Shown here in pieces: positions 23,431 to 40,935 of a stretch of DNA of 64,000 nucleotides (position 1 is the stretch's first letter; each line of letters begins with the position of its first letter). The notes under the pieces are model-generated. The model did not search any database. It was not told the DNA's origin and saw only the letters and a list, made by a program, of their open reading frames with translations. Position numbers and translations under genes: made by a program. The stretch covers positions 1,920 to 65,919 of the forward strand of contig JAJDNB010000084.1 of the NCBI GenBank assembly GCA_022340905.1. Reading direction: 5' to 3'. The stretch is from Deltaproteobacteria bacterium. GTDB lineage: Bacteria > Desulfobacterota > Syntrophobacteria > BM002.

Positions 23431-23508
23431 GTAGTCTAGAGATATTCTTTTATATTCTCCGGCTTTTTGGCTGGGGAGCTGCTGCCAGGAGCAAAGGAAC
23501 TCAGAGCC

Positions 23509-25254
23509 ATGGTTGAAAAAGCTCTCCCGTCCGAGACCAGTATTTTACACGGGCAATTCAGCCAGCTTTTGGAAAATCTCGGTATTGGTGTTTTCACCGT
23601 TGATATGGAACGGAGGATCACCTCATTCAATGAAGCTGTGCAGCGCCTCACTGGGCTCAAGGAAGAAGAGGTCTTAGGCAAGAAGTGTTACGAGATTTTT
23701 TTCAGCGACCTGTGTCATGGCCAGTGTATGTACAGCGATGCGGTAAAAGCAAGTGGCAAGCCCCTGGCCTTCGATATGGAGATTTACGACGAAAGTGGCA
23801 ACAGACGCCACATTACCAAACTTGTTTCCCCTCTTTTCACTGGGGACGGCAGGGTGAATGGTTGCATCGAGATATTTCAGGACCTCTCAGTTTACAGTGA
23901 ACTATTAAACCGGATTCGTTATGACGAGCACAGGCTTAAACTCATTCTGGACAATTTGGACATTGGGATATTTACAGTAAACCGGGGTGGTCACATAACT
24001 TCGTTCAATTCAATGGCCGAGTCTATTACAGGCTACAAGCGTCAAGAGATTCTTGGCCAGCATCACGCCAAGCTTACAGGTTGCAATCTGCCTGGAGAGA
24101 CCTGCAGTCTGGAGGAATCAATCCTTAGCGGTAAGGTCCTGGCAAATCTCCACCGGCGATTATTTACCAAAGACGGCCGTAAACTGCCTATCCGCGCCAA
24201 CTTCATGGCCCTCCGGAATGAAGGGGGAGAAATTATAGGTGGACTAGAGACCTTCCAGGATCTTTCTCTAATCCAGCAGCTCAACCGTGCCATAAGCAAT
24301 AAATACACCTTCGCCGATATGATCGGCAAAGATGGAGTAATGCAACAAATCTTTGAGATTCTTCCTGTGGTTGCCGAAAGTGAAGCCAATGTTCTCGTCG
24401 AAGGCCCCACCGGCACGGGCAAGGATCTCCTGGCTAAGATCATCCACAATGCTTCACGGCGAAAAAATAAACCTTTTGTTAAGGTCAACTGCGCGGCCTT
24501 GCCAGACAATTTACTGGAATCAGAGATGTTTGGCTATGTCAAGGGAGCCTTTACCGGAGCGGACCGGGACAAACCCGGCCGTTTCCAGGAAGCTGACGGA
24601 GGGAGCATCTTTCTCGACGAGATAGGTGACATGCCCCTATCCCTTCAGGCCAAACTCTTGCGAGTTTTAGAAGACAGAGAATTCTATCCCCTGGGTGGAA
24701 GAAAGCTCTGTAGAGTGGATGTGCGGATCATCGCTGCCACCAACCAGATACTTGAAGATCTGGTTAGGGAAAAAAGGTTTCGCGAAGATCTTTTCTACCG
24801 TCTCCATGTGATGCGGCTAGAACTGCCACCTCTGAATGAGCGGCGTGCCGATATACCTCTGCTCATCAACAATTTTGTCAAGCAATACAACGTCACCAAA
24901 GGAGCTTCGGTAACCACAATCGCCGAAGACGCCATGGATATCCTGCTCAATTATGATTATCCGGGCAACATACGTGAGCTGGAAAATGTCATTGAACACG
25001 CCTGTGTGCTCTGCCGGAGCGCAACCATCGAGCGCAGACACCTACCCATGTACCTACAGACTCCCGGTAGCCGCTTGGGGGAGGACATCGTTTCCAGGAC
25101 TGATGTGGCCACAGTGCAGCACCAGTGGGAAAAGGAAAGAATAATAGAAGTATTGAAAAAACACCGTTGGCATCGACAACGAGCTGCCCAGGCCCTGGGC
25201 ATGGATCGCACCACCTTGTGGCGCAAGATGAAAAGGTATGACATCTCGCCATGA
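23509..25254 (+). CDS. Sigma-54 enhancer-binding protein, PAS-PAS-AAA+-HTH, no receiver domain
   Basis: GPTGTGKD, ESEMFGYVKGAFTGA, FLDEIGD, PGNIRELEN, C-terminal AAQALGMDRTTLWRKM. Confidence 0.95.
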   Translation: MVEKALPSETSILHGQFSQLLENLGIGVFTVDMERRITSFNEAVQRLTGLKEEEVLGKKCYEIFFSDLCHGQCMYSDAVKASGKPLAFDMEIYDESGNRRHITKLVSPLFTGDGRVNGCIEIFQDLSVYSELLNRIRYDEHRLKLILDNLDIGIFTVNRGGHITSFNSMAESITGYKRQEILGQHHAKLTGCNLPGETCSLEESILSGKVLANLHRRLFTKDGRKLPIRANFMALRNEGGEIIGGLETFQDLSLIQQLNRAISNKYTFADMIGKDGVMQQIFEILPVVAESEANVLVEGPTGTGKDLLAKIIHNASRRKNKPFVKVNCAALPDNLLESEMFGYVKGAFTGADRDKPGRFQEADGGSIFLDEIGDMPLSLQAKLLRVLEDREFYPLGGRKLCRVDVRIIAATNQILEDLVREKRFREDLFYRLHVMRLELPPLNERRADIPLLINNFVKQYNVTKGASVTTIAEDAMDILLNYDYPGNIRELENVIEHACVLCRSATIERRHLPMYLQTPGSRLGEDIVSRTDVATVQHQWEKERIIEVLKKHRWHRQRAAQALGMDRTTLWRKMKRYDISP

Positions 25255-25483: not shown

Positions 25484-25520
25484 ATTATGATCCAGACACA
25501 AACCCATTGGAGTGTTTCGG

Positions 25521-27854
25521 ATGAGTGAGTCAGTGAGAGGAAACTCAAATCGAGATTTTCTCAGAAGGTTGAGGCAAAGTCTCAGTTTTAAATTGGGTCT
25601 GGCGGTGGGTTTGATTTTCCTGGTTGCGGTACTTGCCCTCACCTTCTATCTCGTATCGCTCCAAAAAGAGCAAGCTTTTGAAAGAATGGTGATGAATGTA
25701 AACCAGTTTAGTGACACGGTGAAGCGGGGCGCCCACTACAGCATGCTCAAGAACCAGCGGGAGAGTTTGCACAAGATTATTGAGGCCATCGGTGCCCAGC
25801 CGGGAGTGGAGAAGATCCGGGTATTCAATAAGACCGGCGAAATCATGTTTGCCAGCGCGAAAGAGGATATCGGTACTAATGTAGATCTACAGGCGGAGGC
25901 GTGTTATGCCTGCCACCGGCGGGACCAGCCCCTGGAACGGCTGAGCATGAGCGATCGCACCCGAATCTATCGAAGCCCGGCAGGAAATCGAGTCCTGGGC
26001 ATGATCAACCCCATATATAATGAGCCCAGTTGCTGGCAGGCTGCTTGTCACTACCATCCAGCGAAGCAGACCGTCCTGGGGGTCTTGGATATAGGTCTAT
26101 CGCTGCAGCCTTTAGATCAGGAAATCCTTGCCACCAAGAAGAAGATTATCTTTTTTGCCACCCTCATCTTCATAGGGGTCACCGTTATTGTGGCCGGTTG
26201 CATCGTCTATTTCGTTAACCGACCCATTCGCCGCCTGGTTTCAGCTACAAAGCAACTCGCAAGAGGTGACTACGAGCAGGAGGTGAATACCATTACTCAA
26301 GATGAGATCGGCGATCTCTCCCGCTCCTTTGACAAGATGCGACAAAACATCAGAGATCAGGCCAATGCTCTCCAGAAAAGCAAGGAAGAATATCAGACTC
26401 TGTTCACACAGGTTCCCTGCCAGATCAGCGTTCAAAACCGGGACTTTCGCATCACCCAAGTGAACAGGGTCTTCGAGGAGCGCTTTGGGGACTGCCAAGG
26501 GGAGTACTGTTACCGGGCTTACAAGGGCAGGGAGGAGAAATGCTTAGTCTGCCCAGTTGAAAAGACGTTCCAGGACGGCCTGCCCCATTCAAGCGAGGAG
26601 ACGGTGGTACGCAAAGATGGCACTCTCGCCTATGTTCTTGCTTTTACCTCCCCCATATTTGACGAAGAGGGTAGGGTGGTGGCTTCCATGGAGATGGCAA
26701 CGGATATTACCCAGGTGCGGTTGTTGGAACAGGAGCTTAAGCGATCAGAGGAAAAGTACCGGACCCTGTTTAACAGTGATCCCAACCCTATTTTTGTAGT
26801 GAACCTTGACAACTTGGAGATCAAGGACGCAAACGAACGAGCCCTCAAGTTCTATGGTTTCGCCCGGGATGAAATCCTCGGCAAAAGCTTTCTGGAGCTA
26901 TCCGAACCCCAGGAATGGGATCGCCTCAGGAAAGTCCCGTGGGAGAGAGAAGGGGCAGTCTACAAGGTGAGACAGCATACTAAAGAAACTGAATCAATAG
27001 TGGTGAACATACGTTACTCTAGCCTTAAAGACATTGGCCAGGATTCCGTTATTGTCACCACCTCTGATGTGACCGAGCGGGTCAAGAGCGAAGAGCAGCT
27101 CATTCAGGCGAGTAAAATGGCCACCTTGGGCGAAATGTCGGCAGGCGTTGCTCATGAGTTAAATCAACCCCTCTCGGTGATAAAGACTTCCGCCAGTTTT
27201 CTCACCAAGAAGATAGATCGAAACGAGCCAGTGTCTCCTGATATTCTTCGGGAGTTAGCAGCTGAAATGGACAGTCAGGTGGACCGTGCTTCACTCATTA
27301 TAAATCACCTGCGCCAATTTGGCCGGAAAACAGACATTCGCAAAGCAAACGTGCAACTTAATGATTGCATTTCCGGGACCTTCACGGTTCTAGGCCGCCA
27401 GTTGGAAGTTCATGGCATCAAGGTAGAACTGGACTTGGAGCAAGAGTTGCCACCAATAAAAGGTGATCGGAACCGGTTGGAGCAAGTTTTTCTCAACCTC
27501 ATCATGAACGCCCGTGATGCCATGGATGAAAAGCAGGAGCGAGCGGGACAGGATATTGAAAAAGTACTCAGGATCTCATCAAGAACTGCAGGCGATCGGG
27601 TGCTGGTGGATGTGTCCGATACCGGACCGGGCATGAGCGAAGAGGTGAAAGAGAAGATATTCGAACCTTTTTTTACCACCAAACCGGTTGGAAAAGGGAC
27701 CGGATTAGGCCTGTCAATTAGCTTTGGCATTGTGCGGGACTATGACGGCATCATAGAGGTACAAAGTGTCGAGGGTCGAGGGACCATATTTTCCCTAAGC
27801 TTTCCAACGGCGGCAGAAGAAACCCCGGAGCCCAGGGAGGTTGCTAGTGGCTGA
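25521..27854 (+). CDS. Membrane sensor histidine kinase: periplasmic CxxCH domain, HAMP, 2x PAS, HisKA/HATPase
   Basis: Two TM segments, CYACH, AHELNQPL H-box, EQVFLNLIMNARDA, DTGPG, GTGLGL. Confidence 0.93.
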   Translation: MSESVRGNSNRDFLRRLRQSLSFKLGLAVGLIFLVAVLALTFYLVSLQKEQAFERMVMNVNQFSDTVKRGAHYSMLKNQRESLHKIIEAIGAQPGVEKIRVFNKTGEIMFASAKEDIGTNVDLQAEACYACHRRDQPLERLSMSDRTRIYRSPAGNRVLGMINPIYNEPSCWQAACHYHPAKQTVLGVLDIGLSLQPLDQEILATKKKIIFFATLIFIGVTVIVAGCIVYFVNRPIRRLVSATKQLARGDYEQEVNTITQDEIGDLSRSFDKMRQNIRDQANALQKSKEEYQTLFTQVPCQISVQNRDFRITQVNRVFEERFGDCQGEYCYRAYKGREEKCLVCPVEKTFQDGLPHSSEETVVRKDGTLAYVLAFTSPIFDEEGRVVASMEMATDITQVRLLEQELKRSEEKYRTLFNSDPNPIFVVNLDNLEIKDANERALKFYGFARDEILGKSFLELSEPQEWDRLRKVPWEREGAVYKVRQHTKETESIVVNIRYSSLKDIGQDSVIVTTSDVTERVKSEEQLIQASKMATLGEMSAGVAHELNQPLSVIKTSASFLTKKIDRNEPVSPDILRELAAEMDSQVDRASLIINHLRQFGRKTDIRKANVQLNDCISGTFTVLGRQLEVHGIKVELDLEQELPPIKGDRNRLEQVFLNLIMNARDAMDEKQERAGQDIEKVLRISSRTAGDRVLVDVSDTGPGMSEEVKEKIFEPFFTTKPVGKGTGLGLSISFGIVRDYDGIIEVQSVEGRGTIFSLSFPTAAEETPEPREVASG

Positions 27855-29475
27855 AGCCAATTTAAAGCGCGTCCTCCTTATCGATGACGAAGAGGGTATC
27901 AGAAAGGTCATGTCGATTGCCCTCAAGGACGCCGGCTATGTGGTTTGGACTGCCGAAAGCGGCGAGCAAGGGTTGGAAATATTCGAACGAGAGAAACCAC
28001 CGCTTGTTCTTACTGATATCAAGATGCCGGGGATGGACGGTATTGGAGTGCTTCGGCGCATAAAAGAAATGGAGACCGATTCCGAGGTAATCATCATAAC
28101 CGGCCACGGCGAGATGGAACTGGCCATCAGCGCCTTGCAGCTGGAGGCCTCAGATTTTATTACCAAGCCCATACATGACGAGGCCCTGTTTATTTCTCTA
28201 AGGCGGGCCGAGGAAAAAATCTCTCTTAAGAGGCAGCTGCGAGATTATACGGAGAACCTAGAGCTGAAGGTCCAAGAGGCCACTGCTGAGATCCAGCGTA
28301 TCAGTGACTTTCAGGCCAACCTCATCGACAACTCCTTGGATGGGATTGTGGCCGGAGATGCAGAGAGAAAGGTTGTTATTTTTAATGAAAGCGCCCAGCG
28401 GCTGACTGGGTACAGGGAGGGTGAGGTGGTGGGGCGGCTCACCCTAGAAGATCTCTATGATAAGGAGATTGTTGATCTTTGGCTAAGCCGGGAGGGAGAA
28501 GCGCCAGACCCCGCAAGTGAAAAGCGTACTAGTCATCTGGATACAACCATCCAGTCTCGGGAAGGAAGAAAAATTCCAATTCGATTAAATCACACTATCC
28601 TACGAAAAGAAGGCCACAAGGTGGGCTGCGTTACCTTCTTCCAAGACTTACGCGAAATTCGCCGCTTGGAAAAACGGCTGGTGCAATCAGAGCGGCTGGC
28701 TGCCATCGGTCAGACCTCGGCCACTATTGCCCATGCCATAAAAAATATAGTGGGTGGTTTGAAAGGCGGGATGTTTGTGGTCAATAAGGGCTTCGAGCTA
28801 TCAAACCAGGACTATCTGCAGAATGGCTGGGACATGGTCCAGCGCAACGTTGCCAAGATCTCAAGCCTGGCCATGGACCTGCTCACCTATGCCAAGGAGC
28901 GGAAACCTGAATACCGCTTAGCAGAAGCCAATACGGTGGCGGCGGAGGCTGTGGAGCTCTTAAAAACGAGGGCAGCGGAGTTCAAGGTGAATCTAACCTT
29001 GGAAGCCACAGAGGGGTTGGAGCCGGTTGCAATGGATGTCAGCGGTATTCATCAATGTTTGGTCAACCTGATCAACAATGCCATTGACGCCTGCTGGCCA
29101 GAAATATGTGGCCATGAACAGGGGCAGGTTGCGGTGCGCACTTGTCGCGACCCGGACTGGGCAGTCTGTTTCGAGGTGGAAGATAATGGTTGTGGAATAG
29201 AGGCGAGCAACAAAGAGAAGATCTTCACCAATTTTTTCAGCACTAAAGGGGCTGACGGTACTGGCTTGGGACTGCTCAACGTCCAGAAAATTGCCCAAGA
29301 ACACGGAGGTTCTGTTGAGGTTGAATCTGAGCCCGGCAAGGGCTCAGTATTTCGTCTCTTGCTACCCTCGGGACCCAGCAAGGATACAGAAGATCTCAAC
29401 GAAAATGGCACAGAGGAGAATGAGAACCAAGAAGCATACTCGGTCGTGGCCCAAGCAGACAGGAGGAAGTCATGA
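27847..29475 (+). CDS. Hybrid REC-PAS-histidine kinase
   Basis: LLIDDE...TDIKMPGMDG...ITKP receiver; AHAIKN H-box; DNGCG, GTGLGL. Confidence 0.93.
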   Translation: MAEANLKRVLLIDDEEGIRKVMSIALKDAGYVVWTAESGEQGLEIFEREKPPLVLTDIKMPGMDGIGVLRRIKEMETDSEVIIITGHGEMELAISALQLEASDFITKPIHDEALFISLRRAEEKISLKRQLRDYTENLELKVQEATAEIQRISDFQANLIDNSLDGIVAGDAERKVVIFNESAQRLTGYREGEVVGRLTLEDLYDKEIVDLWLSREGEAPDPASEKRTSHLDTTIQSREGRKIPIRLNHTILRKEGHKVGCVTFFQDLREIRRLEKRLVQSERLAAIGQTSATIAHAIKNIVGGLKGGMFVVNKGFELSNQDYLQNGWDMVQRNVAKISSLAMDLLTYAKERKPEYRLAEANTVAAEAVELLKTRAAEFKVNLTLEATEGLEPVAMDVSGIHQCLVNLINNAIDACWPEICGHEQGQVAVRTCRDPDWAVCFEVEDNGCGIEASNKEKIFTNFFSTKGADGTGLGLLNVQKIAQEHGGSVEVESEPGKGSVFRLLLPSGPSKDTEDLNENGTEENENQEAYSVVAQADRRKS

Positions 29476-29954
29476 TTGAATATCAAAACATTCTGTATTG
29501 CAGTGATTTTTCTGAGGAGGCAGAGATGGCATTCCATCACGCCGTAGACTTCTGCCAGCGGTATAACGCTAAGCTTCATCTACTCCATGTGCTGCACTCA
29601 GGATACAAGTACATGCGTCACGTGGTGGATGAGTATGTCGACCCCAGTAAGGATGAAGAAGTTGCAGACGATACGCTGATCAATCAAGCGGAGGAAGACC
29701 TCAAGTCTAAGTATGGAAGCCGGTTGGAAAATTGTAATCAGGCTGTCTTCGCAGTTCGAGTAGGGGTTCCCTTCGTGGAAATTGTTCGCTACGCCAGAGA
29801 GCACAAGGTGGATTTCATCATCATGGGTGCTTCGGGTAGCTCGGAGTTGGACAAGCAGACCTTCGGCAGCACGGTGGAAAATGTCGCCAGGCGGGCACAC
29901 TGCCACGTGATGGCCATCCGCAACCCGGAGCTGGCCTTTAAGCTCCCCGACTGA
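29472..29954 (+). CDS. Universal stress protein
   Basis: ILYCSDFSEEA, GVPFVEIV, IIMGASG...FGSTVENVAR. Confidence 0.9.
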   Translation: MIEYQNILYCSDFSEEAEMAFHHAVDFCQRYNAKLHLLHVLHSGYKYMRHVVDEYVDPSKDEEVADDTLINQAEEDLKSKYGSRLENCNQAVFAVRVGVPFVEIVRYAREHKVDFIIMGASGSSELDKQTFGSTVENVARRAHCHVMAIRNPELAFKLPD

Positions 29955-30068: not shown

Positions 30069-30467
30069 ATGAAGAAAAAGAGGATCTTGGTGGTGGATGA
30101 CGAGCTGGACATGCGCACCTTCATCACCACTCTGCTAGAGACCAGTGGCTACAAACCGATTATCGCCATCAACGGAGAAGAGGGCATTCTCAAAGCCCGG
30201 GAGAAAAAACCGGCGGCAATTATCCTCGATGTGATGATGCCCCGAGAGGGCGGGATCCAAATGTATCGGGAACTGAAAACTGATGAGCAACTCAAGGATA
30301 TTCCGGTGATTATGCTGTCGGCCATAGCCAAAAAGACCTTTTTCCATTCCCAACAAGTGCTAAATACCTATAGAGGACAAAAGGTTCCAGAGCCGGCTGC
30401 ATACATAGAGAAGCCGCCGGAGACCGCGGAGCTTCTCCAGATTCTCGAACAGTGTCTCGGTTGTTAG
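30069..30467 (+). CDS. Single-domain response regulator
   Basis: ILVVDDE, ILDVMMP, IMLSA, YIEKP. Confidence 0.92.
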   Translation: MKKKRILVVDDELDMRTFITTLLETSGYKPIIAINGEEGILKAREKKPAAIILDVMMPREGGIQMYRELKTDEQLKDIPVIMLSAIAKKTFFHSQQVLNTYRGQKVPEPAAYIEKPPETAELLQILEQCLGC

Positions 30468-30509: not shown

Positions 30510-33500
30510 ATGGCAGCGAAAATTGGCGTTTACATTTGTCATTGTGGAACCAACATTGCTGGCAAGGTGGACACTGAGAAGGTGGCGGAGTTCGCTAAGG
30601 GGTTGAGAGATGTTGTAGTCGCCCGGGACTACAAGTTCATGTGTTCAGATCCTGGCCAGGAGATGATCCAAAAGGACATTCAGGAACTGGGTCTTAACCG
30701 AGTGGTGGTGGCCTCTTGCTCCCCTAGACTTCATGAGAAGACCTTTCAGGGCGCGTGCCAGAGAGCAGGTGTCAACCCTTATCTTTTTCAGATGGCTTGT
30801 ATTCGTGAACACTGTTCTTGGGTAGTCGAAGATAAGGATGAGGCCACCAGCAAGGCTAAGACTCTCGTAGCGGCGGCGGTGAGCCGGGTAAGTCAACATC
30901 AGAGACTTGCTACCAGGGAGGTGGGCGTCCACCCGGATGTGATGGTGGTTGGCGCAGGCATTGCCGGAATCCAGGCGGCGCTGGACATCGCCAAATCAGG
31001 CCACCAAATCTACCTAGTGGAGCGAAATCCCTCCATTGGTGGGCACATGATGAAGTTTGACAAGACCTTTCCCACCCTGGACTGCGCTGCCTGCATTTCC
31101 ACGCCCAAAACGGTAGCTGTAGCCCAGGAGCCAAATATCCACCTCTTTTCCTATAGCGAAGTGGCTGAGGTGAATGGCTATGTGGGAAATTACACGGTCA
31201 AGATCAAGAGAAAAGCCCGTTATGTCCGAGAGGACCAATGCACTGGCTGCGGCCAATGTTCAGAAGTGTGTCCGGTTTCCATGCCCAGCGAGTTCGATGA
31301 GTATCTCAGTGAACGCAAGGCTATTTACCGCTTTTTCCCTCAGGCAGTGCCAATTACCTATTGCATTGACAAAAAGGATCGGGCCCCATGCACCATTACC
31401 TGCCCTGCAGGCATTAATGTGCAGGGTTATGTTCAACTTATTGGCAAAGGAAAGTACAAGGAAGCTGTTCAGCTGATCATGGAACGGCTGCCCCTGCCAG
31501 GCGTGTTGGGGCGAGTATGTCCCCATCCCTGCGAGTTTCAATGTCGCCGGGCAGAAATTGATGAAGCAGTGGCCATCAGGGATCTGAAACGATTTGCAGC
31601 CGATCAGGTGGATTTGGCAGAGCTACCCAAGCCCGAAATCGAGGAACGGCCTGAAAAGGTCGCGGTGGTAGGATCCGGGCCCGCCGGGCTCGCAGTGGCC
31701 TACTATCTTCGACTGAAGGGCTACCAGATTACCATATTTGAGGCCCTGCCAGTACTGGGTGGCATGCTGCGCGTGGGCATACCGGATTACCGGCTTCCTC
31801 CAGAACTCCTTGATCAAGAAATAAACAACATACTGCGGCTGGGAATTGAAACGCAGACCGGGAAAAGACTTGGATTTGATTTTACCCTGGAAGATTTGAA
31901 GAAGGACGGTTATCAGGCTGTTTTCCTCGGTATTGGCGCTCACCGTAGCTTGAAAATGGGCATCAGTGGGGAGGAGGATTTTGAGGGTGTGGTAGATGCG
32001 GTAGATTTTCTCAGGGAAGTAAACCTGGGCGAGCGTGCAAGGCCGGGCAAGAGGGTAGTGGTTATCGGCGGCGGTAACGTTGCCATCGATGCTGCTCGGG
32101 CAGCAGTGCGCCTTGGGTGTGAGCAGGTAAACATCGTCTATAGACGAAGCCGGGAAGAGATGCCAGCGTACCCGGAGGAGATCGAGGGAGCCTTGTCCGA
32201 AGGGGTGGAGCTTCACTACCTTACTGCTCCTGTGGGCATTGTGGGCACCAACGGCAAAGTAAACGGTTTTGAGTGCATTCGAACTGAACTGGGGCCTCCC
32301 GATGAAAGCGGCAGGCGGAGGCCAGTACCGGTAGAAGGCTCTGAATTCGTCATTGAGTGTGATGCGGTCATCCCAGCAATAGGCCAGCAGCCTGATGTGG
32401 ACTGGGCAGTGGAACAGGGCGAACTCGAAATCACCAGACGCAACACCTTGGTGGTAGACCCGCACACCATGCAGACGGCAATCCCTGGTGTGTTTAGTGC
32501 TGGTGATTCAGTAAGTGGACCGGCAACGGTTATTGAAGCTGTGGCCTCCGGCCATAAGGCAGTGGAAGCCATACACCGCTACATCGAAGGGGAGGAGCTC
32601 GCTGTTTACGCCGAGGAGCTTGAAGCAAGAGAAGCCCCGGGGCAGGACTGGAGGGAGCTGCCTGAAGATTATCCGGTGGAGGCAAGAGCGCATCTGCCCC
32701 ACAAAGACCCCCAGGAGAGCAGATCTCATTTTGGCGAGGTGGCCCTGGGATTCGAGGAGGAAGAGGCGAGAAGAGAGGCGAATCGCTGCATCAATTGTGG
32801 CATCTGTTGCGAGTGTATGGAGTGTGTCCGAGCCTGTGAGAGAAATGCTGTCGACCATAACATGGAGGAGGAAGAAGTTGAGGTCAAGGTGGGGAGCATC
32901 ATCATGGCTACCGGATTTCAGGTTCTTGATCCCACTCCAATGAAGCAGTACGGTTATGGACGGTTCAAAGAGGTCTACACTGGTCTGGAGTTCGAGCGGC
33001 TGAACAATGCAGTGGGCCCCACGGGTGGAAAGATAGTAATGAAAAATGGCAAACCGCCAGCCAGCGTTGGCATCATCCACTGCGTGGGAAGTCGTGATGT
33101 TAATTACCACGAGTACTGCTCACGAGTGTGCTGCATGTATGCTCTCAAATATGGCCATCTTATCAAGGAAAAAGCCGGGCATGACACGCAGGTCTATAAT
33201 TTTTACATTGACATGCGATGTTTTGGCAAAGGATACGAGGAATTTTACCGTAGACTTCAAGAAGAGGGGATTACCTTCATACGGGGAAAACCTGCCGAGA
33301 TTACGGACCAGGCCATAGGAGCTGAGGAAGAGGGCAAACTTATCATTATTGGTGAAGACACCTTGATTGGTAAAAAGCTACGGGTGCCCGTGGACATGGT
33401 TGTTCTTTGTACGGCTATGGAGCCCACTAAAGATGCTGCTGAGGTGGCTCGGGTGTTTGGCATCAACCAGGGAGGCGATGGATTCTTCCTGGAAGAGCAT

Positions 33501-33896
33501 CCCAAACTGGGTCCGGTCTCCACTGCAACTGACGGAGTTTTTCTGGCAGGGACCTGCCAAGGGCCCAAGGACATTCCAGATGCTGTTTCCCATGCGGCTG
33601 GGGCGGCAGCTCAAGCGCTGGCTCTCGCTACCAGGGGCAAGGTGGAAATTCCTTCCACCATCTCCTGGATTGATCCTGATGTATGTGCGGGTTGTCAAGC
33701 CTGCATCAATCTTTGTCCGTATTCGGCCATTGAGTTCGATTCACGAAGAAACGTCTCGGTGATCAACGAGGCACTTTGTAAAGGATGTGGAAGTTGCGCC
33801 GGCCACTGCCCCAGTGGAGCCGCGCGAATCAACCATTTTACCGGTAGGCAGATCTTCGCTGAGATCGAGGGCATTCTGGACGACTTGGTTGGCTAG
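30510..33896 (+). CDS. hdrA: HdrL-type heterodisulfide reductase A with inserted GltD-like NAD(P)H/FAD module
   Basis: GVYICHCG, VVASCSPR, GAGIAG, DKTFPTLDC; GltD-like insert CPAG...GRVCPHPCE...GSGPAG...GIPDYRLP...GGGNVA; CVGSRD, CSRVCC; C-terminal ferredoxin. Confidence 0.92.
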   Translation: MAAKIGVYICHCGTNIAGKVDTEKVAEFAKGLRDVVVARDYKFMCSDPGQEMIQKDIQELGLNRVVVASCSPRLHEKTFQGACQRAGVNPYLFQMACIREHCSWVVEDKDEATSKAKTLVAAAVSRVSQHQRLATREVGVHPDVMVVGAGIAGIQAALDIAKSGHQIYLVERNPSIGGHMMKFDKTFPTLDCAACISTPKTVAVAQEPNIHLFSYSEVAEVNGYVGNYTVKIKRKARYVREDQCTGCGQCSEVCPVSMPSEFDEYLSERKAIYRFFPQAVPITYCIDKKDRAPCTITCPAGINVQGYVQLIGKGKYKEAVQLIMERLPLPGVLGRVCPHPCEFQCRRAEIDEAVAIRDLKRFAADQVDLAELPKPEIEERPEKVAVVGSGPAGLAVAYYLRLKGYQITIFEALPVLGGMLRVGIPDYRLPPELLDQEINNILRLGIETQTGKRLGFDFTLEDLKKDGYQAVFLGIGAHRSLKMGISGEEDFEGVVDAVDFLREVNLGERARPGKRVVVIGGGNVAIDAARAAVRLGCEQVNIVYRRSREEMPAYPEEIEGALSEGVELHYLTAPVGIVGTNGKVNGFECIRTELGPPDESGRRRPVPVEGSEFVIECDAVIPAIGQQPDVDWAVEQGELEITRRNTLVVDPHTMQTAIPGVFSAGDSVSGPATVIEAVASGHKAVEAIHRYIEGEELAVYAEELEAREAPGQDWRELPEDYPVEARAHLPHKDPQESRSHFGEVALGFEEEEARREANRCINCGICCECMECVRACERNAVDHNMEEEEVEVKVGSIIMATGFQVLDPTPMKQYGYGRFKEVYTGLEFERLNNAVGPTGGKIVMKNGKPPASVGIIHCVGSRDVNYHEYCSRVCCMYALKYGHLIKEKAGHDTQVYNFYIDMRCFGKGYEEFYRRLQEEGITFIRGKPAEITDQAIGAEEEGKLIIIGEDTLIGKKLRVPVDMVVLCTAMEPTKDAAEVARVFGINQGGDGFFLEEHPKLGPVSTATDGVFLAGTCQGPKDIPDAVSHAAGAAAQALALATRGKVEIPSTISWIDPDVCAGCQACINLCPYSAIEFDSRRNVSVINEALCKGCGSCAGHCPSGAARINHFTGRQIFAEIEGILDDLVG

Positions 33897-34009: not shown

Positions 34010-34432
34010 ATGTCAGACTTCGAGCCGACAATCATCGCTTTCGTTTGCAATTGGTGCACCTACACCGCTGCGGATTTGGCAGGGACCTCAAGGTTAACCC
34101 AGCCTCCCAACGTGAGGATGATCAGAATGATGTGCACCGGGATGGTGGACCCCAAGTATGTGATCAAGGCTTTATTGGAAGGGGCGGATGCAGTGCTCAT
34201 CAGCGGCTGCCATCCTGGCGACTGCCACTACATCAACGGCAACCTCAAGGCCCGCCGCCGGGTCAAATTGCTGAAGGAGATTTTGCCACGTTTCGGCTTT
34301 GACCAGCGGAGAGTTAAGCTCACGTGGATTGGAGCTAGTGAGGGCATTGACTTCGCCAACACTATGAACGAGTTGGTGGCTGAGGTCAAGGAGTTGGGCC
34401 CCAATGAAGTGCGGAAGCAGATGGTCATTTAA
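34010..34432 (+). CDS. mvhD: MvhD/HdrA-associated [2Fe-2S] subunit
   Basis: FVCNWCTYTAADLAG, MCTG, GCHPGDCHY. Confidence 0.95.
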   Translation: MSDFEPTIIAFVCNWCTYTAADLAGTSRLTQPPNVRMIRMMCTGMVDPKYVIKALLEGADAVLISGCHPGDCHYINGNLKARRRVKLLKEILPRFGFDQRRVKLTWIGASEGIDFANTMNELVAEVKELGPNEVRKQMVI

Positions 34433-34471: not shown

Positions 34472-35617
34472 ATGGCAACCACAGTGAAAATACCGATAAA
34501 AGATCAGAACTTGGTCAGTTCTTTACAGGATTTTTTCAAGGCAATGCTGCGGGACGGAGGCATAAACGGTCTCATGGTGGCCCAACACCTGCCGACGAAA
34601 AATTCAGTGATGCCCACGTTAGTGACAGACCCGGACAAGCTCGATACTGCCGATCCACTAGCACCCGTTTTTCCTATTAACGCAGCTAAAGTGGTTTCAA
34701 AGCTTACCAGAAAACCTCTCGGGGGGAAGGTGGCAGTTGTGCTTCGGCCCTGCGAGATCCGGGCCTTCATTGAGTTGGTGAAATTGAAGCAAGGGAGAGT
34801 CGATGACGTCGTCCTTATCGGGATGGACTGTCTGGGCGCATACAGCAATGTCCAATATCCTGATTTTGCCGGTGATAACGGCATGGAGGCAACCTTGAGG
34901 TTTTACCGCAACATTCAAGAAGGCAAGGGAACGGCTTGCGATGGCTTTGATGTTTCACCTGCCTGCAAGGCCTGCGAGCATCCCATACCGGAAAATGCTG
35001 ATGTGCTCATTGGCTTAGTGGGTGTGGACCTCAAAGATCACCTGCTGGCGAAGGCCAATACACCTCGAGGAGAGGAGCTGTTGGAAAATCTCGGGCTGTC
35101 CTCTACCAGTGAGCCGGAAAAACGGGGGAAAGAGATAGAAAAACTGGTGACAGAACGGCTGTCATATCGTGACCAGATGTTTGTTGAGACCAGTGAGGCC
35201 ACAGCAGACGTGGGGAAGCTTGTGAGTTATCTCGGCAACTGTGTCAATTGTTACAACTGCCGGGTGGCTTGCCCTGTTTGCTATTGCAAAGAGTGTGTTT
35301 TTCTCACCGATGTCTTCGACCACGAACCTTCGCAATATCTGAGATGGGCAAAGCGCAAGGGCATCCTAAAAATGCCCACAGACACGGTCTTCTTTCATTT
35401 GACCCGCATAGCTCACATGAGTACGGCGTGTATCGGTTGCGGCCAGTGTTCCAATGCCTGTCCCAACAATATACCCGTAATGGAGCTATTTCGAACCATG
35501 GCACACTACACGCAGACGGCCTTTGATTATGTAGCCGGACGGAGCCTAGAGGACGACCCTCCATTGTCGGTATTTCGGGAAGATGAATTCCAGGAGGTTG
35601 TGGCGAAATCACACTAG
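34472..35617 (+). CDS. FdhB/FrhB-like Fe-S subunit
   Basis: VVLRPCEIRA, IGMDCLG, ACKACEHP, CVNCYNCRVACPVCYCKEC, CIGCGQCSNACP. Confidence 0.85.
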   Translation: MATTVKIPIKDQNLVSSLQDFFKAMLRDGGINGLMVAQHLPTKNSVMPTLVTDPDKLDTADPLAPVFPINAAKVVSKLTRKPLGGKVAVVLRPCEIRAFIELVKLKQGRVDDVVLIGMDCLGAYSNVQYPDFAGDNGMEATLRFYRNIQEGKGTACDGFDVSPACKACEHPIPENADVLIGLVGVDLKDHLLAKANTPRGEELLENLGLSSTSEPEKRGKEIEKLVTERLSYRDQMFVETSEATADVGKLVSYLGNCVNCYNCRVACPVCYCKECVFLTDVFDHEPSQYLRWAKRKGILKMPTDTVFFHLTRIAHMSTACIGCGQCSNACPNNIPVMELFRTMAHYTQTAFDYVAGRSLEDDPPLSVFREDEFQEVVAKSH

Positions 35618-35844: not shown

Positions 35845-38800
35845 ATGAGAAAAAAGATAGGATCAGCCTTGGTGGTGGGAGCCGGAATCAGCGGTATTCG
35901 CTCCGCTTTGGATTTGGCAGAACTTGGCTACCAAGTAAAGCTCATTGACCGAGCACCGAACTTGGGAGGAACTCTTACGCAGCTTGACTACCAATTTCCC
36001 AGTGACCACTGCGGCATGTGCAAGATGCTGCCTCTGGTAGAACGGGATTCTTCTTCCCAATACTGCCTGCGCAAGGGGCTCTTTCACCAAAACATCGAGA
36101 TAATGCTCAACACTGAACTGGTGGAAATGGAGGGTGAGCCCGGCAAATTCGAGGTCACCTTGCGACAGAGACCTGCCGTAGTAGACCCAGAACTTTGCAT
36201 TGGTTGCGGAGAATGTAGTCGCGTTTGCCCGGTGGAAGTTGCAGACGAGTTCAATGCCGGATTGGCCAAGAGAAAAGCGGTCTATCTGCCAGTGCCCCAC
36301 AACATTCCTAATAACTACGTAGTCGACTTGGATTCCTGCACCATGTGTGGCGAGTGTGAAAAGATTTGTCCCACTGGGGCCATCGATTTCCGCTGGGAAG
36401 CACGGAGTCAATTTAAAATCCTGGTGGTAGATGATGAACTCATTGTGCGGGACTCGCTCAAAGATTGGCTGATCGAGGAGGGATTTGATGTTGACACGGC
36501 GGAATCCGGCCCCGCCGCTTTAGAAAAGATCGCCAAACAGCCATACCATCTGATGCTCCTTGACATCAAAATGCCAGAGATGGATGGGGTCGAAGTATTG
36601 CAGCGGGCTAAGGACATGCGGCCCGAACTTCCGGTGGTGATGATGACGGCGTACGCCACGGTGGAAACAGCAGTGGAGGCCATGAAGATTGGAGCTCTTG
36701 ACTATCTGATGAAACCCTTCGATCCAGATACCCTTGTTCCTCTGGTGGTTAAACTCTACGAGAACTTAGAGCGGGCGGGGGAGCTTAAGATGGAAGTCGG
36801 GGCGGTTATCCTGGCCGCGGGCTTTGGCTCCTTTGATCCGGCAGGAAACGGTTTGAACACGTACGGCTACGGTGAGATTCCCAATGTAGTTACCAGCATA
36901 GAGTTCGAACGGATAGTAAGTGCCAGCGGGCCCTCTCAGGGTAAACTGGTGCGTCCCAGCGATGGCAAAGAGATTCGCAAAATAGCCTGGCTTCAATGTG
37001 TGGGTTCCAGAGACATGCACGCAGATGCGGACTACTGCTCCTCCATCTGCTGTATGTTCTCCGTCAAAGAAGCACTGCTTGCCAAGGAGAGAAGCAATGG
37101 TCAGGTGGAGGCCGCGATCTTCTATATGGATATGCGAACTTTTGGCAAGGATTTCCAACGGTATCGGGACGAGGCAGAAAAGACATATGGGGTTAGGTTT
37201 CAGAGGAGCAGAGTTCACTCGGTGGAACAGAAGGAATTGGGAGGAGACCCGCGAATCGTCTACACGGATATCACGGGGACGGGACGGGAGGAGATTTTTG
37301 ACTTGGTGGTACTTGCCGCCGGCCAAAGACCACCTGCTGGCAGCGATGTCCTGGCGGAAACGACCGGAGTTGAATTGAATCAATGGGGGTTCTGCCAATT
37401 AAAACCTTTTTCTTTAAGTCTAACCAGCCAGGATGGGGTATACGTTGCCGGCTCCTTTTCGGGCCTCAGGGATATCTCCGAATCAGTAATTCAGGCAAGT
37501 TCCGCCTCCTTGAGGGCTTCCGGTCTGATACATTCAAAGGGTGGAGGCCTTGCCGAGGCCAGTGAATCAAAGGTTGCCTTTCGTGACGTATCCCGCGAAC
37601 CGCCTCAGGTCATGGTGGCTCTCTGCACCTGCGGCGACACCTTCACTCAGGCAGTTCAAATAAAAGAGGTGGAATCCTTTGTTTCGAATCTCGACTCCGT
37701 CAGCCATGTGCATCGCTTTGGAAGTATTTGCACGCAAGAAGGTTGGAATCAGCTTGAGCAAGCTATGGAAGCAAGCGGGGCAAACCGTCTCCTCATTGGG
37801 TCCTGCATGCCCTACCTTTACACGAGAAAACTTCGTGACCTGGGTGCAAATATAGGACTAAATCCTGCGCTCATGGAGGTTGTGGATATCCGGAGTTCCG
37901 TGTTTCCTGGAAATAACTCTAGCCAGGAGCAGGCGAGCCGGGAGATTCGGCTGGCGCTGTCCATGGGAGTGGGCAAACTCAAGGGGATGGACCCTTCGGT
38001 CTCGACCGGTACCCCCATTGCTCAAAAGGGGCTGGTGGTGGGCGGTGGGATAGCCGGTATGACTTCGGCATTGGGCATTGCTGAACATGGTTTCGAGGTT
38101 TTCTTGGTGGAAAAAACGGAGGAACTTGGGGGTAATCTCCGGCACCTCTATCGGACCCTCGAGGGCAACTCACCCCAGGAACTCTTGGAGCAGACGATCT
38201 CCAAGGTTCAAAGACATCCCAATATTCACCTGCACATGAATTCAAGGGTGCTCCATTCTCACGGTAGGGTTGGACGGTTCATTACTACCATTGAGAAAGA
38301 AGACGGCTCAGGTGAGACCCTTGAGCATGGGGTCACAATTCTGGCAACGGGAGGCAAAGAGGCCACCACCGAGTCCTACGGCTATGGTCAAAGTGACATC
38401 ATTGTTACCCAACACCAACTGGAGGAACAGCTCCATTCAGGTCAAATAGATCCTGCGGAGTTGGGCGTAGTTGCCATGATTCAATGCGTAGACTCACGGG
38501 AAGAGCCGCGGAACTACTGCAGCAGGATATGCTGTAGTTCGGCGCTGAAAAACGCCCTCTATTTAAAAGAACAAAATCCAGAGATCGATATTTATATCCT
38601 TTACCGAGATATTATGGCCTATGGATTTCTCGAGACTTATTACACCCAGGCGCGGCAGGCGGGGGTGATTTTCATTCAATACGACGTAGACGACAAACCG
38701 AAGGTTAACATAGAAAATGGCCGTGTCTCGGCTGCTGTCACTGATCCAATCCTGGGCCGGGAGGTGGTGGTGGAGACTGATCTGTTGGTGCTCAGTACCG

Positions 38801-39276
38801 GCATTGCTCCCGAGGGGCAAGGGAAGTTGGCAGAAATATTCGGGGTTGAAACAAACCAGGACGGCTTCTTTCAGGAGGCGGAGTATAAGTGGCGACCGGT
38901 GGATTTTCTTAGAGAAGGAGTTTTCACCTGCGGTATGTCGCATTCTCCGCGGAACATTACCGAATCCATTGCCATGGCGGAGGCAACTGCACAGCGAGCA
39001 CTTAGAATTCTTGCCAGCGAAAGACTGACTGCGGGCAGCACAGTCGCTGAGGTGCGCTACAGCCTTTGCTCACTGTGCGAGAAATGCATTGAAGCCTGTC
39101 CTTATGGAGCCAGGTGGCGAGATGAAGATGAAGAAAAGATAATGGTTGATGAGCTGAGCTGCCAGGGGTGTGGTTCCTGTGCGGCCGTTTGTCCCAACAG
39201 CGCCTCGGTTCTCCGTGGCTACCGGGATCAACAGATCTTCTCAGTGATTGATGCAGCACTGGAAGAGATTTTCTAA
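35845..39276 (+). CDS. hdrA: Tandem (double) HdrA-like flavoprotein with an embedded response-regulator receiver domain
   Basis: GAGISG FAD motif, 2x[4Fe-4S] insert, receiver (ILVVDDE...LLDIKMPEMDG...MMTAY...LMKPF), CVGSRD/CSSICC, ALCTCG, second GGGIAG FAD domain with CSRICC, C-terminal ferredoxin. Confidence 0.92.
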   Translation: MRKKIGSALVVGAGISGIRSALDLAELGYQVKLIDRAPNLGGTLTQLDYQFPSDHCGMCKMLPLVERDSSSQYCLRKGLFHQNIEIMLNTELVEMEGEPGKFEVTLRQRPAVVDPELCIGCGECSRVCPVEVADEFNAGLAKRKAVYLPVPHNIPNNYVVDLDSCTMCGECEKICPTGAIDFRWEARSQFKILVVDDELIVRDSLKDWLIEEGFDVDTAESGPAALEKIAKQPYHLMLLDIKMPEMDGVEVLQRAKDMRPELPVVMMTAYATVETAVEAMKIGALDYLMKPFDPDTLVPLVVKLYENLERAGELKMEVGAVILAAGFGSFDPAGNGLNTYGYGEIPNVVTSIEFERIVSASGPSQGKLVRPSDGKEIRKIAWLQCVGSRDMHADADYCSSICCMFSVKEALLAKERSNGQVEAAIFYMDMRTFGKDFQRYRDEAEKTYGVRFQRSRVHSVEQKELGGDPRIVYTDITGTGREEIFDLVVLAAGQRPPAGSDVLAETTGVELNQWGFCQLKPFSLSLTSQDGVYVAGSFSGLRDISESVIQASSASLRASGLIHSKGGGLAEASESKVAFRDVSREPPQVMVALCTCGDTFTQAVQIKEVESFVSNLDSVSHVHRFGSICTQEGWNQLEQAMEASGANRLLIGSCMPYLYTRKLRDLGANIGLNPALMEVVDIRSSVFPGNNSSQEQASREIRLALSMGVGKLKGMDPSVSTGTPIAQKGLVVGGGIAGMTSALGIAEHGFEVFLVEKTEELGGNLRHLYRTLEGNSPQELLEQTISKVQRHPNIHLHMNSRVLHSHGRVGRFITTIEKEDGSGETLEHGVTILATGGKEATTESYGYGQSDIIVTQHQLEEQLHSGQIDPAELGVVAMIQCVDSREEPRNYCSRICCSSALKNALYLKEQNPEIDIYILYRDIMAYGFLETYYTQARQAGVIFIQYDVDDKPKVNIENGRVSAAVTDPILGREVVVETDLLVLSTGIAPEGQGKLAEIFGVETNQDGFFQEAEYKWRPVDFLREGVFTCGMSHSPRNITESIAMAEATAQRALRILASERLTAGSTVAEVRYSLCSLCEKCIEACPYGARWRDEDEEKIMVDELSCQGCGSCAAVCPNSASVLRGYRDQQIFSVIDAALEEIF

Positions 39277-39418: not shown

Positions 39419-39985
39419 ATGAGCGAAGAGACAAGAGAACTATCCGAGGGTCACGCCGAGGAAGATTTAATGGCCGCCATCCGGGAAAACATTAAAGCGT
39501 GCATGCAGTGCGGCACCTGCACCGGTTCTTGCGGCAGCGCTTATGCCATGGATTTCACCCCTAGGCAAATGTGGCGAATGGTTCAACTTGGCATGGTAGA
39601 TGAAATCTTTAATAGCCGGACCTTTTCCCTTTGCTCAAGTTGCTATTACTGCACCTTGCGCTGTCCGCGGGGCTTGCCTCTGACAGAGAGCATTCATGGT
39701 TTGAAGCAACTGGCTGTAGCCAAGGGAGTTGCAGAAAAAAAGGGAGCACGTTTCTACCAGACTTTTCTTGACACGGTCAGACGCTATGGCCGGGTGAGGG
39801 AGATGGAGCTCATGGCCAGGTACTTTATTGCCATGAAGAGTCCCGTACTCCCTCTGAGTTTCACCCCTCTCGGCATGAAACTTATGATGAAAGGCAAAGT
39901 CTCACCTGAAATGCCGCAATTCTTTAGGCCAGGGAAGTTGGACGGTATCTTTCGCAAGGTAAAAGAACTGGAGGCACGTTCATGA
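39419..39985 (+). CDS. hdrC: Heterodisulfide reductase subunit C-like
   Basis: CMQCGTCTGSC, CSSCYYCTLRCPRG. Confidence 0.92.
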   Translation: MSEETRELSEGHAEEDLMAAIRENIKACMQCGTCTGSCGSAYAMDFTPRQMWRMVQLGMVDEIFNSRTFSLCSSCYYCTLRCPRGLPLTESIHGLKQLAVAKGVAEKKGARFYQTFLDTVRRYGRVREMELMARYFIAMKSPVLPLSFTPLGMKLMMKGKVSPEMPQFFRPGKLDGIFRKVKELEARS

Positions 39986-40851
39986 AATACTTCTATTACT
40001 CCGGATGTTCTTTGGAGGGCACTGCGCTCGAATATGACATCTCCACCCGAGCGGTCATGCAAGCACTGGGAGTAGAACTGATCGAGTTGGATGATTGGAC
40101 CTGCTGCGGCGCCAGTGCAGCAGAGGCGGTCAGCGAGCTCCTTTCAATGGTACTTCCGGCTCGCAATCTGGCTTTGGCTGCAAGAATGGATCAAGACTGT
40201 GATTTTGTGATCCCCTGCAGTGCATGCTACCTCAATCTCAGGAAGGTAGACGAGCACCTAGATAGGGACGAAGGACTCCGAGAGAAAATCAATGCTGTCC
40301 TGCAGGAAGAGGAATTAAGCTACAAAGGAGGCATCAAATCTCGCCATTTGTTGGATGTACTTGCTACCGATATTGGTGCCGAGATGATCAAGGCTAAGGT
40401 AAACCGCAAGCTGTCAGGGCTGCGCATCGCTCCATATTATGGGTGTCAAGCCTTACGTCCTTACGGGGGCTACGACGACCCGGAAGAACCTCGATGTATG
40501 GAGCCGTTGATCGAGGCTCTTGGTGCAGAGGTGCATCCTTGGCCAATGGGTGCCAAATGCTGCGGTGCCGGGCTCATGACCACTAAGAAAGAAATCGCCC
40601 TTGAACTAACTGGTGAGCTGTTGAAGGCAGCGAAAGGGGCCGACTGTATTGCTACAGTATGTCCCATGTGCCAAATGAACCTAGATAGCTATCAGAAAAA
40701 GGTGTCCCAGGTCAAAGGTGAAGACTTGAGAATCTCGGTTCTCTATCTACCCCAGCTAATTGGTATGGCTTTTGGACTAAACGCAGAGGCTCTAAAATTA
40801 GATCTCAATATGGCTTATACTGATTCTTTACGAACAAAGCTCAAGAATTGA
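39982..40851 (+). CDS. hdrB: Heterodisulfide reductase subunit B-like (two CCG domains)
   Basis: YYSGCSL, DWTCCGA, PCSACY, YYGC, KCCG, CPMCQMNLD. Confidence 0.94.
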   Translation: MKYFYYSGCSLEGTALEYDISTRAVMQALGVELIELDDWTCCGASAAEAVSELLSMVLPARNLALAARMDQDCDFVIPCSACYLNLRKVDEHLDRDEGLREKINAVLQEEELSYKGGIKSRHLLDVLATDIGAEMIKAKVNRKLSGLRIAPYYGCQALRPYGGYDDPEEPRCMEPLIEALGAEVHPWPMGAKCCGAGLMTTKKEIALELTGELLKAAKGADCIATVCPMCQMNLDSYQKKVSQVKGEDLRISVLYLPQLIGMAFGLNAEALKLDLNMAYTDSLRTKLKN

Positions 40852-40933: not shown

Positions 40934-40935
40934 CT

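Follow-up and report, generated by a model that had tools for sequence, protein, structure and literature searches.

The stretch of DNA analysed here (in the following the window, 64,000 nucleotides) corresponds to contig C178 of a 4.1-Mb, 94% complete metagenome-assembled genome (MAG) of a deltaproteobacterium, which consists of 278 contigs. Its forward strand contains an open reading frame of 1143 amino acids (aa), P0001, which encodes a tandem (fused) HdrA-like flavoprotein with an embedded CheY-like receiver domain (REC) (Table 1). The frame begins with MRKK, a start position shared by its homologues, has no internal stop codons and shows a flat GC content along its length. Pfam places FAD/NAD Rossmann matches at aa 8-41 and 730-766, and two Fer4 motifs (aa 111-181) directly precede the receiver. 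The second module is furthermore covered by Pyr_redox_2 (aa 730-847) and a Fer4 dicluster match (aa 1068-1118); its N-terminal-domain-like segment carries Cys594, 596, 629 and 654, and its FAD domain has no inserted ferredoxin domain. The two modules are complementary in content, module 1 having the inserted ferredoxin domain and neither an N- nor a C-terminal domain and module 2 the reverse, which identifies P0001 as a tandem HdrA, a fused pseudo-heterodimer. In the inserted ferredoxin domain, Cys118, 128, 165, 168, 171 and 175 do not vary among 98 aligned sequences, and Cys121 and 124 hardly vary; likewise invariant are the [4Fe-4S] sites of the two thioredoxin-reductase-like domains (C385, C398, C402, C403 and C881, C892, C896, C897). 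A full-length AlphaFold2 model (pLDDT 89.3, pTM 0.87) matches the solved HdrA chains 8rvy_A, 5odc_A and 7bkb_A with Foldseek E-values of 1.6e-48 to 3.2e-47. Both NCBIfam equivalog profiles for HdrA were missed (NF040770, 718.8 bits at a cut-off of 1100; NF041778, 538.9 bits at a cut-off of 1400). By these profile scores P0001 is HdrA-like, but not an orthologue of the HdrA of the methanogen CoB-CoM heterodisulfide reductase, and a bifurcating role can be proposed by analogy from its fold and from its neighbours MvhD, HdrC, HdrB and HdrL.

A previous reading of the same DNA, made from its letters alone (the sequence-only reading), had described a complete receiver lying in frame between the 2x[4Fe-4S] insert and the second half of FAD domain 1. 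This description is borne out by the Pfam match to Response_reg (PF00072, aa 192-298, E 1.5e-31, 109.3 bits at a gathering threshold of 30.2, profile positions 1-107 of 111) and by alignment to REC-less tandem HdrA paralogues (~1000-1020 aa), in which the receiver stands out as a clean block of ~125 residues, whereas the paralogues span the gap with ~10 residues. It is flanked by CPTGAIDx, the end of the inserted ferredoxin domain with its last Cys motif, and by the strand xVGAVILAxG. The receiver is thus inserted between aa 185 and 312 of the enzyme, and not joined to one of its ends as in classical enzymatic response regulators; P0001 may at most function in their manner, and it is assigned to none of the named output classes. 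Positions 36415-36770 translate to KILVVDDE...LYENL, and the DDE pocket, the phospho-Asp codon at 36562-36564, the switch Thr and the Lys are exactly those named in the sequence-only reading. The structure prediction which that reading had proposed as a check returned a canonical (beta-alpha)5 receiver within the confident HdrA-fold model, with a pLDDT of ~90 for the stretch 190-310 (beta1 191-195, alpha1 199-211, beta2 215-219, alpha2 222-231, beta3 236-240, alpha3 248-258, beta4 264-268, alpha4 273-282, beta5 284-289, alpha5 294-310). Judged from the secondary structure of the model and from linker lengths, both connections to the enzyme are very short, as a helix (184-188) leads into beta1 and alpha5 is followed one residue later by the FAD-domain strand 312-318. 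A flavodoxin was considered as an alternative identity of the insert and rejected, as no flavodoxin was among the best 25 of 32 Pfam families and all of the best solved matches were receivers. By its residues, the insert is thus a complete receiver whose predicted phospho-acceptor pocket is intact.

Table 1. Features of the locus, with coordinates in the window
Feature	Position	Strand	Basis
Tandem HdrA with embedded REC, P0001	35845..39276	+	ORF, Pfam, AlphaFold2, Foldseek
Module 1 part 1: FAD Rossmann start aa 8-41 and inserted 2x[4Fe-4S] ferredoxin domain aa 111-181	35845..36399	+	Pfam Pyr_redox, Fer4
Receiver (REC, CheY-like), aa 191-310	36415..36774	+	PF00072, AlphaFold2, alignment
Acidic pocket D196-D197-E198	36430..36438	+	Codons GAT GAT GAA; D196 137/138, D197 135/138
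Predicted phospho-acceptor Asp240	36562..36564	+	Codon GAC; Asp 137/138, gap in the remaining sequence
Switch Thr268	36646..36648	+	Codon ACG; Thr 136/138
Switch Tyr287 and Lys290-Pro291 (beta5 / beta5-alpha5 loop)	36703..36717	+	Y 137/138, K 136/138, P 138/138
Module 1 part 2: rest of FAD/thioredoxin-reductase-like domain, [4Fe-4S] set C385, C398, C402, C403	36778..37644	+	AlphaFold2 strand, Cys conservation
Module 2: N-terminal-domain-like segment, second FAD domain, C-terminal 2x[4Fe-4S] domain	37600..39276	+	Pfam, conserved Cys, secondary structure
Sigma-54 activator, two PAS, no REC	23467..25254	+	Pfam
HK1 membrane histidine kinase: two transmembrane helices, extracytoplasmic CxxCH and Cx4CH, HAMP, two PAS, HisKA, HATPase	25512..27854	+	Pfam, hydropathy
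HK2 histidine kinase: REC-PAS-DHp-HATPase	27841..29475	+	Pfam
Universal stress protein (USP)	29472..29954	+	Pfam Usp, E 1.4e-26
Single-domain receiver, DivK/DVU0259-like	30069..30467	+	Pfam; NF045717 78.6 bits, below cut-off of 160
HdrL: HdrA with NfnB/GltD-like NAD(P)H module at ferredoxin-domain site	30510..33896	+	Pfam, NCBIfam; syntenic in 11 loci
MvhD-like [2Fe-2S] subunit	34010..34432	+	Pfam FlpD, E 9.7e-53
FrhB/FdhB-like flavo-iron-sulfur subunit	34472..35617	+	Pfam FrhB_FdhB_C and Fer4
HdrC-like subunit	39419..39985	+	Pfam, NCBIfam
HdrB-like (CCG) subunit	39982..40851	+	Pfam, NCBIfam

The fusion is not confined to this assembly. PF00072 was present in all of the 120 best listed relatives of aa 100-420 (69-93% identity, mostly ~1140 aa; JGI, ENA, NCBI and Logan), which the databases name "heterodisulfide reductase subunit A", "response regulator" or "FAD-dependent oxidoreductase". 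In a library of 50%-identity representatives, at least 17 of 150 listed clusters, besides fragments, match the whole ferredoxin-REC-FAD stretch, unbroken and at the same position. Species-representative genomes yielded 13 complete and two contig-truncated in-place fusions among 80 kept loci, all of them from MAGs labelled Syntrophobacterales, Syntrophobacteraceae, Syntrophobacter, Desulfobacterales, Desulfobacteraceae, Desulfosarcinaceae or "Deltaproteobacteria". One further candidate, L080, was removed from this count, as its listed match covers positions 1-317, but tblastn finds only HdrA residues 315-1141. An even sample of the phylum contained the fusion in 10 of 400 other genomes, with one copy each, and the carriers, including the genome of the window, span eight families. 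The genome of the window itself holds a single copy amid many REC-less HdrA paralogues. No isolate was found among the named matches (relatives and representative genomes, all MAGs); cultured carriers may exist nevertheless. Both junctions are bridged by Logan contigs from other sequencing runs, for which no joints or indels were reported. These include DNA contigs (X1 record 2, 36009-36692; X2 records 27, 36369-36573, and 29, 36676-36831) as well as contigs from two metatranscriptome libraries (X15 record 11, 36471-36851; X16 record 20, 36592-37016), of which the RNA-library runs held small shares (0.06-0.22). The sequence-only reading had named uniqueness to this assembly, with junctions not spanned by reads, as an outcome that would speak against it, and the opposite was found; its supposition that homologous fusions lie unstudied in databases proved right.

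The residues of the phospho-acceptor site are strongly conserved. Of 138 family members, 132 have the full DD-D-T-K set; the six exceptions comprise four single deviations and two degenerate-looking sets, those of P0134 (DPDGH) and of the fragment P0138 (DPDAK). Wherever it could be computed, the ratio of non-synonymous to synonymous substitution rates (dN/dS) of the receiver was 0.02-0.15, values which refer to the pairs that remained after many others were set aside for saturated dS. The dN of the receiver was lower than that of the middle and C-terminal HdrA parts in nine of ten pairs, the exception being the window versus L009. Similarly, the receiver was at least as well conserved in identity as these HdrA parts in the 11 loci that have a complete receiver and an HdrA less than 90% identical to that of the window. 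These substitution patterns indicate that the receiver is under purifying selection. In a midpoint-rooted tree calculated without the REC columns from 98 sequences of our own choice (set A2, taken from the listed relatives and the 50%-identity library), all 49 REC-bearing sequences fall into one clade (support 0.999), to which a REC-less group is sister. Two REC-less proteins, P0155 and P0157, are nested within this clade with moderate support (0.94 and 0.73) and have lost the entire domain without a replacement spacer. This tree is most simply read as a single ancient insertion that was retained for a long time, lost twice and degraded once or twice. As P0155 and P0157 are nested in the REC clade, the enzyme can apparently exist without its receiver, as would be expected of a regulatory add-on. 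Together, P0134 and P0138 with their degraded pockets and P0155 and P0157 with no receiver at all represent natural "mutants" within the REC-bearing clade that can be used for comparison.

The receiver was probably taken from an NtrC-type regulator. Its best solved matches are FleR, NtrC1 and NtrC (E 4e-24 to 2e-20), and its best NCBIfam matches are AtoC, ZraR and NtrC. The closest receivers of the same genomes belong to NtrC-type sigma-54 regulators as well (48-58% identity), with the closest one (58%) being located on contig C31 beside a Cys-rich PAS kinase. This kinase is a candidate for the cognate kinase of the HdrA receiver. On the respective contig (G000 C31:1-2403, L002) the PAS kinase with its Cys-rich motif precedes the regulator gene, which runs off the contig end. 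In L014 and L017, NtrC-type receivers with 48-50% identity are part of a regulator-kinase pair located just upstream of hdrL.

The fusion gene is part of a same-strand gene string that runs from the sigma-54 activator past the HdrB-like subunit (Table 1) to an acyl-CoA synthetase. In 12 loci the FrhB-like gene is the direct 5' neighbour of the fusion gene. L010, L011 and L014-L022 share the order HdrL-MvhD-FrhB-like-HdrA(REC), and the shorter loci L009 and L013 retain FrhB-like-HdrA(REC). HdrCB follows 3' of the fusion gene in seven loci (L009, L011, L013, L014, L016, L017, L018) and was not found after it in six (L010, L015, L019, L020, L022, L023). An orthologue of the membrane kinase HK1 adjoins the cluster in L011, L014-L020, L022 and L023, usually accompanied by the REC-containing kinase and often by the USP and the single-domain receiver; its position and orientation vary among these loci. 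Within the phylum sample, an HK1-like kinase occurs within ~10 kb of the fusion in six of the ten other fusion genomes. The part of HK1 between its two predicted transmembrane helices (aa 50-205, 25512-26200 region) contains CxxCH and, in addition, Cx3-4CH, two motifs that are present in 15 of 15 orthologues. This suggests that the extracytoplasmic part of HK1 may bind c-type heme and sense a gas or the redox state of the periplasm. The sequence TGGCAC-N5-TGGCA at 25469-25484, just 3' of the activator gene, has one mismatch to the sigma-54 -24/-12 consensus and ends 28 bases before the start of HK1. As a scan of the window for sigma-54 promoters gave 38 matches versus 36.8 expected by chance, only the location of this site just upstream of HK1 is suggestive.

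Receivers were also found in a second arrangement. A search with the HdrA part of P0133 revealed PF00072 in 13 of 120 listed relatives, P0133 included (P0133, P0283, P0291, P0294, P0298, P0299, P0305, P0306, P0329, P0334, P0339, P0382, P0389). Those that were scanned carry one to three N-terminal receivers before HdrL (P0294, P0299, P0389) or before HdrA (P0133, P0334, P0339), and 26 of the 27 N-terminal receivers hold an E/D-D-D-T/S-K set, the remaining one being N-truncated. With these N-terminal fusions existing besides the inserted receiver, at least two topologies of receiver fusion are seen in HdrA-family flavoproteins, and the N-terminal fusions arose independently of the inserted one. 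The occurrence of the kinase cassette beside Hdr clusters, taken together with the N-terminal fusions, suggests that Desulfobacterota have signalling machinery devoted to complexes of the Hdr type.

Several known systems share parts of this architecture. HdrA of the methanogen HdrABC-MvhAGD, Hdr-Fdh and Elp-Hdr complexes (5odc, 7bkb, 8rvy) has the same fold (TM-score to target up to 0.78), and shares the FAD Rossmann motifs, the four-Cys [4Fe-4S] set, the inserted 2x[4Fe-4S] and C-terminal ferredoxin domains and the neighbours MvhD, HdrC and HdrB. P0001 differs from it in having 25-28% identity, two fused modules with complementary domain loss and a receiver after the inserted ferredoxin domain. 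As the host is a bacterium, CoM-S-S-CoB appears to be an unlikely substrate. Closer in layout are the fused HdrA proteins described as their "own heterodimer" (HdrA3/4 of ANME archaea and the HdrA of Moorella MetFV-HdrABC-MvhD; PMC9012536), which combine two complementary modules in one chain, as observed here. The REC-less sister proteins (~1000-1020 aa) have the same tandem layout. In the fused HdrA of PMC9012536, however, the N-terminal Fe-S domain is located on the N-terminal module, whereas in P0001 the N-terminal-domain-like segment precedes module 2, and the passages on fused HdrA in that paper make no mention of a receiver domain. A foreign domain at the ferredoxin-domain site is also found in HdrA proteins with an inserted HdrL/NfnB-type module, such as HdrL of D. 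autotrophicum (PMC2702500) and HdrA9-11 of ANME-1 (PMC9012536). HdrL carries an insert of ~500 aa, a catalytic flavoprotein module that binds NAD(P)H, while the one described here is a signalling domain of 120 aa with no redox cofactor. The ferredoxin-domain site of HdrA accommodates exchangeable input and output modules, with an NAD(P)H module in HdrL and a receiver in P0001.

Response regulators with enzymatic outputs are well established, with CheB, WspR and RpfG as examples. PleD and RssB, which are also among the matches of the receiver described here, likewise have a phospho-competent receiver that is covalently joined to an enzyme, an arrangement for which control after translation is to be expected. 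In CheB, PleD/WspR, RpfG and RssB the receiver is, however, terminal and attached via a linker, whereas in P0001 it lies inside the fold of the output enzyme, which is an iron-sulfur flavoprotein of energy metabolism. The NtrC-family receivers (FleR 7w9h, NtrC1 1zy2/1ny5, NtrC 1dc7), the best solved matches, share the GAxDYLxKPF motif with P0001. Unlike them, P0001 has no AAA+ or DNA-binding output, and its alpha5 runs straight into the FAD-domain strand. Full-text searches of the literature, which covered main texts, revealed neither a receiver within or fused to HdrA nor an iron-sulfur flavoprotein as a response-regulator output; supplements might still show such a receiver (PMC2702500, Figure S3 and tables; PMC9012536, S10 Fig and S2 Data). 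This agrees with the statement of the sequence-only reading that no characterised example was known to it. The architecture, in which a bifurcation-type flavoprotein from a signalling-rich Hdr cluster contains an inserted receiver with a phospho-competent set of residues, is real and conserved and appears to be undescribed.

As a hypothesis for the action of the receiver, we propose that a single ancient event placed an NtrC-family receiver in the linker by which the chain returns from the inserted 2x[4Fe-4S] ferredoxin domain to the FAD domain, and that this receiver would be a working phospho-acceptor with Asp240 as the acceptor residue. The phosphoryl group may be donated by a histidine kinase, with HK1 and HK2, both linked to the fusion gene, and the PAS kinase that accompanies the closest NtrC-type paralogue as candidates, or alternatively by acetyl phosphate. 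The face of a receiver which is altered upon phosphorylation is alpha4-beta5-alpha5. As the chain runs from the ferredoxin domain through the receiver into the FAD domain, with alpha5 in line with the core strand 312-318, and as both linkers are very short, a change of this face could be transmitted mechanically. The pose or accessibility of the ferredoxin domain would be altered, which would tune how tightly the flavin is coupled to ferredoxin, or to some other partner of low potential, in an HdrL-MvhD-FrhB-like-HdrA-(HdrCB) complex. In solved methanogen complexes, electrons of the low-potential branch leave through the inserted ferredoxin domain, which is connected to the acceptor polyferredoxin (PMC13518236); this would place the receiver at an exit port and not on a moving element. 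It is also in favour of a phospho-switch that the string of two kinases and three receivers in the window has no DNA-binding REC regulator, that HK1-like kinases lie near the fusion in other genomes, and that receivers with the full residue set were joined independently to the N-terminus of HdrL or HdrA. The balance of evidence tips, in our view, towards a genuine phospho-switch located at the enzyme's low-potential port. Our proposal for the wider system is clearly more tentative, and we consider it possible rather than probable: two-component phosphorylation might directly set the coupling state of a flavin-based bifurcating or confurcating Hdr complex, fed in these relatives of syntrophs and sulfate reducers by a membrane kinase with an extracytoplasmic heme-c-type sensor and by cytoplasmic PAS kinases that would report redox or H2/formate status, as a general control layer in Desulfobacterota.

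A number of observations weigh against a phospho-switch of this kind. The sequence-only reading had assumed that movement of the inserted ferredoxin domain gates electron flow. Current structural work differs on this point and attributes gating to motions of the N-terminal domain and of the MvhD/VhuD arm (PMC13518236). P0134 and P0138 have lost pocket residues yet retain the domain, which indicates some phosphorylation-independent role. The contigs from RNA libraries show that the junction is present in these libraries and are no proof of its transcription. The two upstream kinases, which the sequence-only reading had suggested as donors for a phosphotransfer assay, do lie in the same gene string as the fusion, but their adjacency is not specific to it. 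An HK1 orthologue is located ~220 kb away from the fusion in G041 and on another contig in G147, G050 and G121, and full-length HK1 orthologues occur in many genomes without a fusion. Furthermore, seven of eight fetched non-fusion loci (L089-L091, L093-L096) have the cassette adjoining a REC-less Hdr cluster; it consists there of a PAS sigma-54 activator (at the head), HK1, REC-containing kinase, USP and single receiver, followed by HdrC-HdrB-HdrL (fused, ~1470 aa)-MvhD. In the eighth, L092, the cassette occurs without an Hdr cluster. A cassette specific to the fusion is not supported by these loci, in seven of which it stands beside Hdr clusters without a receiver in any Hdr protein, and kinase adjacency is for this reason weaker evidence than it appears. 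The cassette is accordingly an older companion of Hdr clusters, to which the HdrA receiver was added later. The adjacent kinases may also not be the partners of the HdrA receiver, since this is NtrC-like (48-58% identity), while the receivers of the cassette are far more distant (33-35% for that of HK2, 22-27% for the single-domain receiver). Taken as a whole, the interpretation put forward in the sequence-only reading is partly supported; it is plausible if corrected in two respects, the element to which gating is assigned and the weight given to kinase adjacency.

The receiver could, phosphorylated or not, act mainly as a docking or dimerisation surface that chooses between partners of HdrA, for example HdrL-MvhD-FrhB-like versus HdrCB, a second copy of the complex, the single-domain receiver or HK2, with electron transfer within the subunit remaining unchanged. 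NtrC-family receivers, its closest relatives, typically act via alpha4-beta5-alpha5 dimer interfaces, and the varying make-up of the cluster, with HdrCB found after the fusion gene in seven loci and not in six, would be in line with a choice of partners. The tandem N-terminal receivers of HdrL and HdrA also suit docking better than an intradomain lever. On the other hand, the very short linkers restrict the reach of the inserted receiver to distant partners. A conserved phospho-pocket would be needed for docking, too, and therefore does not discriminate between the two readings. Overall, we regard partner choice as unlikely.

In a further reading, signals would travel in the opposite direction: the redox or conformational state of HdrA would alter the gain or loss of phosphate by the receiver and thereby tune other outputs of the kinase network, such as the single-domain receiver, HK2 or sigma-54-dependent transcription. 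The gene string of the window resembles the layout of a branched phosphorelay, with two kinases and three receivers, among which Pfam revealed no DNA-binding REC regulator, and no REC-containing transcription factor is found in the window. As the cassette exists elsewhere without a receiver in HdrA, the latter would represent an added branch. However, no HPt domain was seen by Pfam in this string, phosphate sinks are usually free single-domain proteins, and an identity of only 22-35% to the cassette receivers does not indicate a shared kinase. Such a feedback or sink function seems quite improbable to us.

Even less probable appears a purely structural pseudo-receiver, whose role at the ferredoxin port would be that of a spacer or scaffold and which would stay unphosphorylated in vivo, with a pocket that binds only metal or is a frozen relic. 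This idea gains some weight from P0134 and P0138, in which the domain outlived its pocket. For the general case the conserved pocket argues against it, as 132 of 138 members retain all five residues and 137 retain Asp240; a relic would not keep dN/dS values of 0.02-0.15 and an intact pocket across at least eight families, and a mere spacer fits poorly with two lineages having dropped the whole domain with no spacer in its place. An assembly or annotation artefact, i.e., a chimeric contig or a frame error that joined a response-regulator gene to hdrA, would be conceivable for a MAG in 278 fragments, but can for all practical purposes be rejected given the open frame, the same architecture in 120 of 120 listed relatives, 15 loci and 10 of 400 genomes, and the independent contigs that bridge the junctions.

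Flavin-based electron bifurcation allows anaerobes living at the thermodynamic limit to produce low-potential ferredoxin. To our knowledge, the control of direction and coupling of bifurcating enzymes is largely obscure, and the known regulation is transcriptional. Two-component systems have been linked to Hdr operons at this level, for example by DVU2394 (PMC3333781). A receiver at the ferredoxin port of HdrA offers a concrete and testable case of direct post-translational control of a bifurcating enzyme, in which a sensor kinase may switch an enzyme of energy metabolism directly, bypassing gene expression. It would add a redox enzyme to the outputs of response regulators and an inserted receiver to the terminal ones. 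If the phospho-switch operates as proposed, ferredoxin-linked electron flow could be opened, closed or reversed within seconds, with no new protein synthesis, and the N-terminal fusions would make such control a general, so far unrecognised feature of energy conservation in Desulfobacterota. D240 mutants and BeF3- provide a handle that could trap functional states of the Hdr complex for structural work.

Some minor observations concern the surroundings of the cluster and its relatives in the same genome. At least four further HdrL-like and tandem-HdrA loci are present in the genome of the window, on short contigs. Of the REC-less paralogous clusters considered as controls for kinase linkage, the one on C41 (18.7 kb, with ~13 kb of flanking sequence) exhibited no receiver or kinase match, and the other contigs are too short for this comparison (C40 4.6 kb, C244 4.0 kb, C215 5.7 kb, C113 8.2 kb). 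The hdr genes of the window are followed (40918-47550) by genes for a TetR regulator, EtfB, EtfA, an HdrD-like CCG iron-sulfur protein of 685 aa and an acyl-CoA synthetase, and the same set is present in L009 and L010. This suggests that the Hdr cluster is linked with the electron flow of fatty-acid oxidation.

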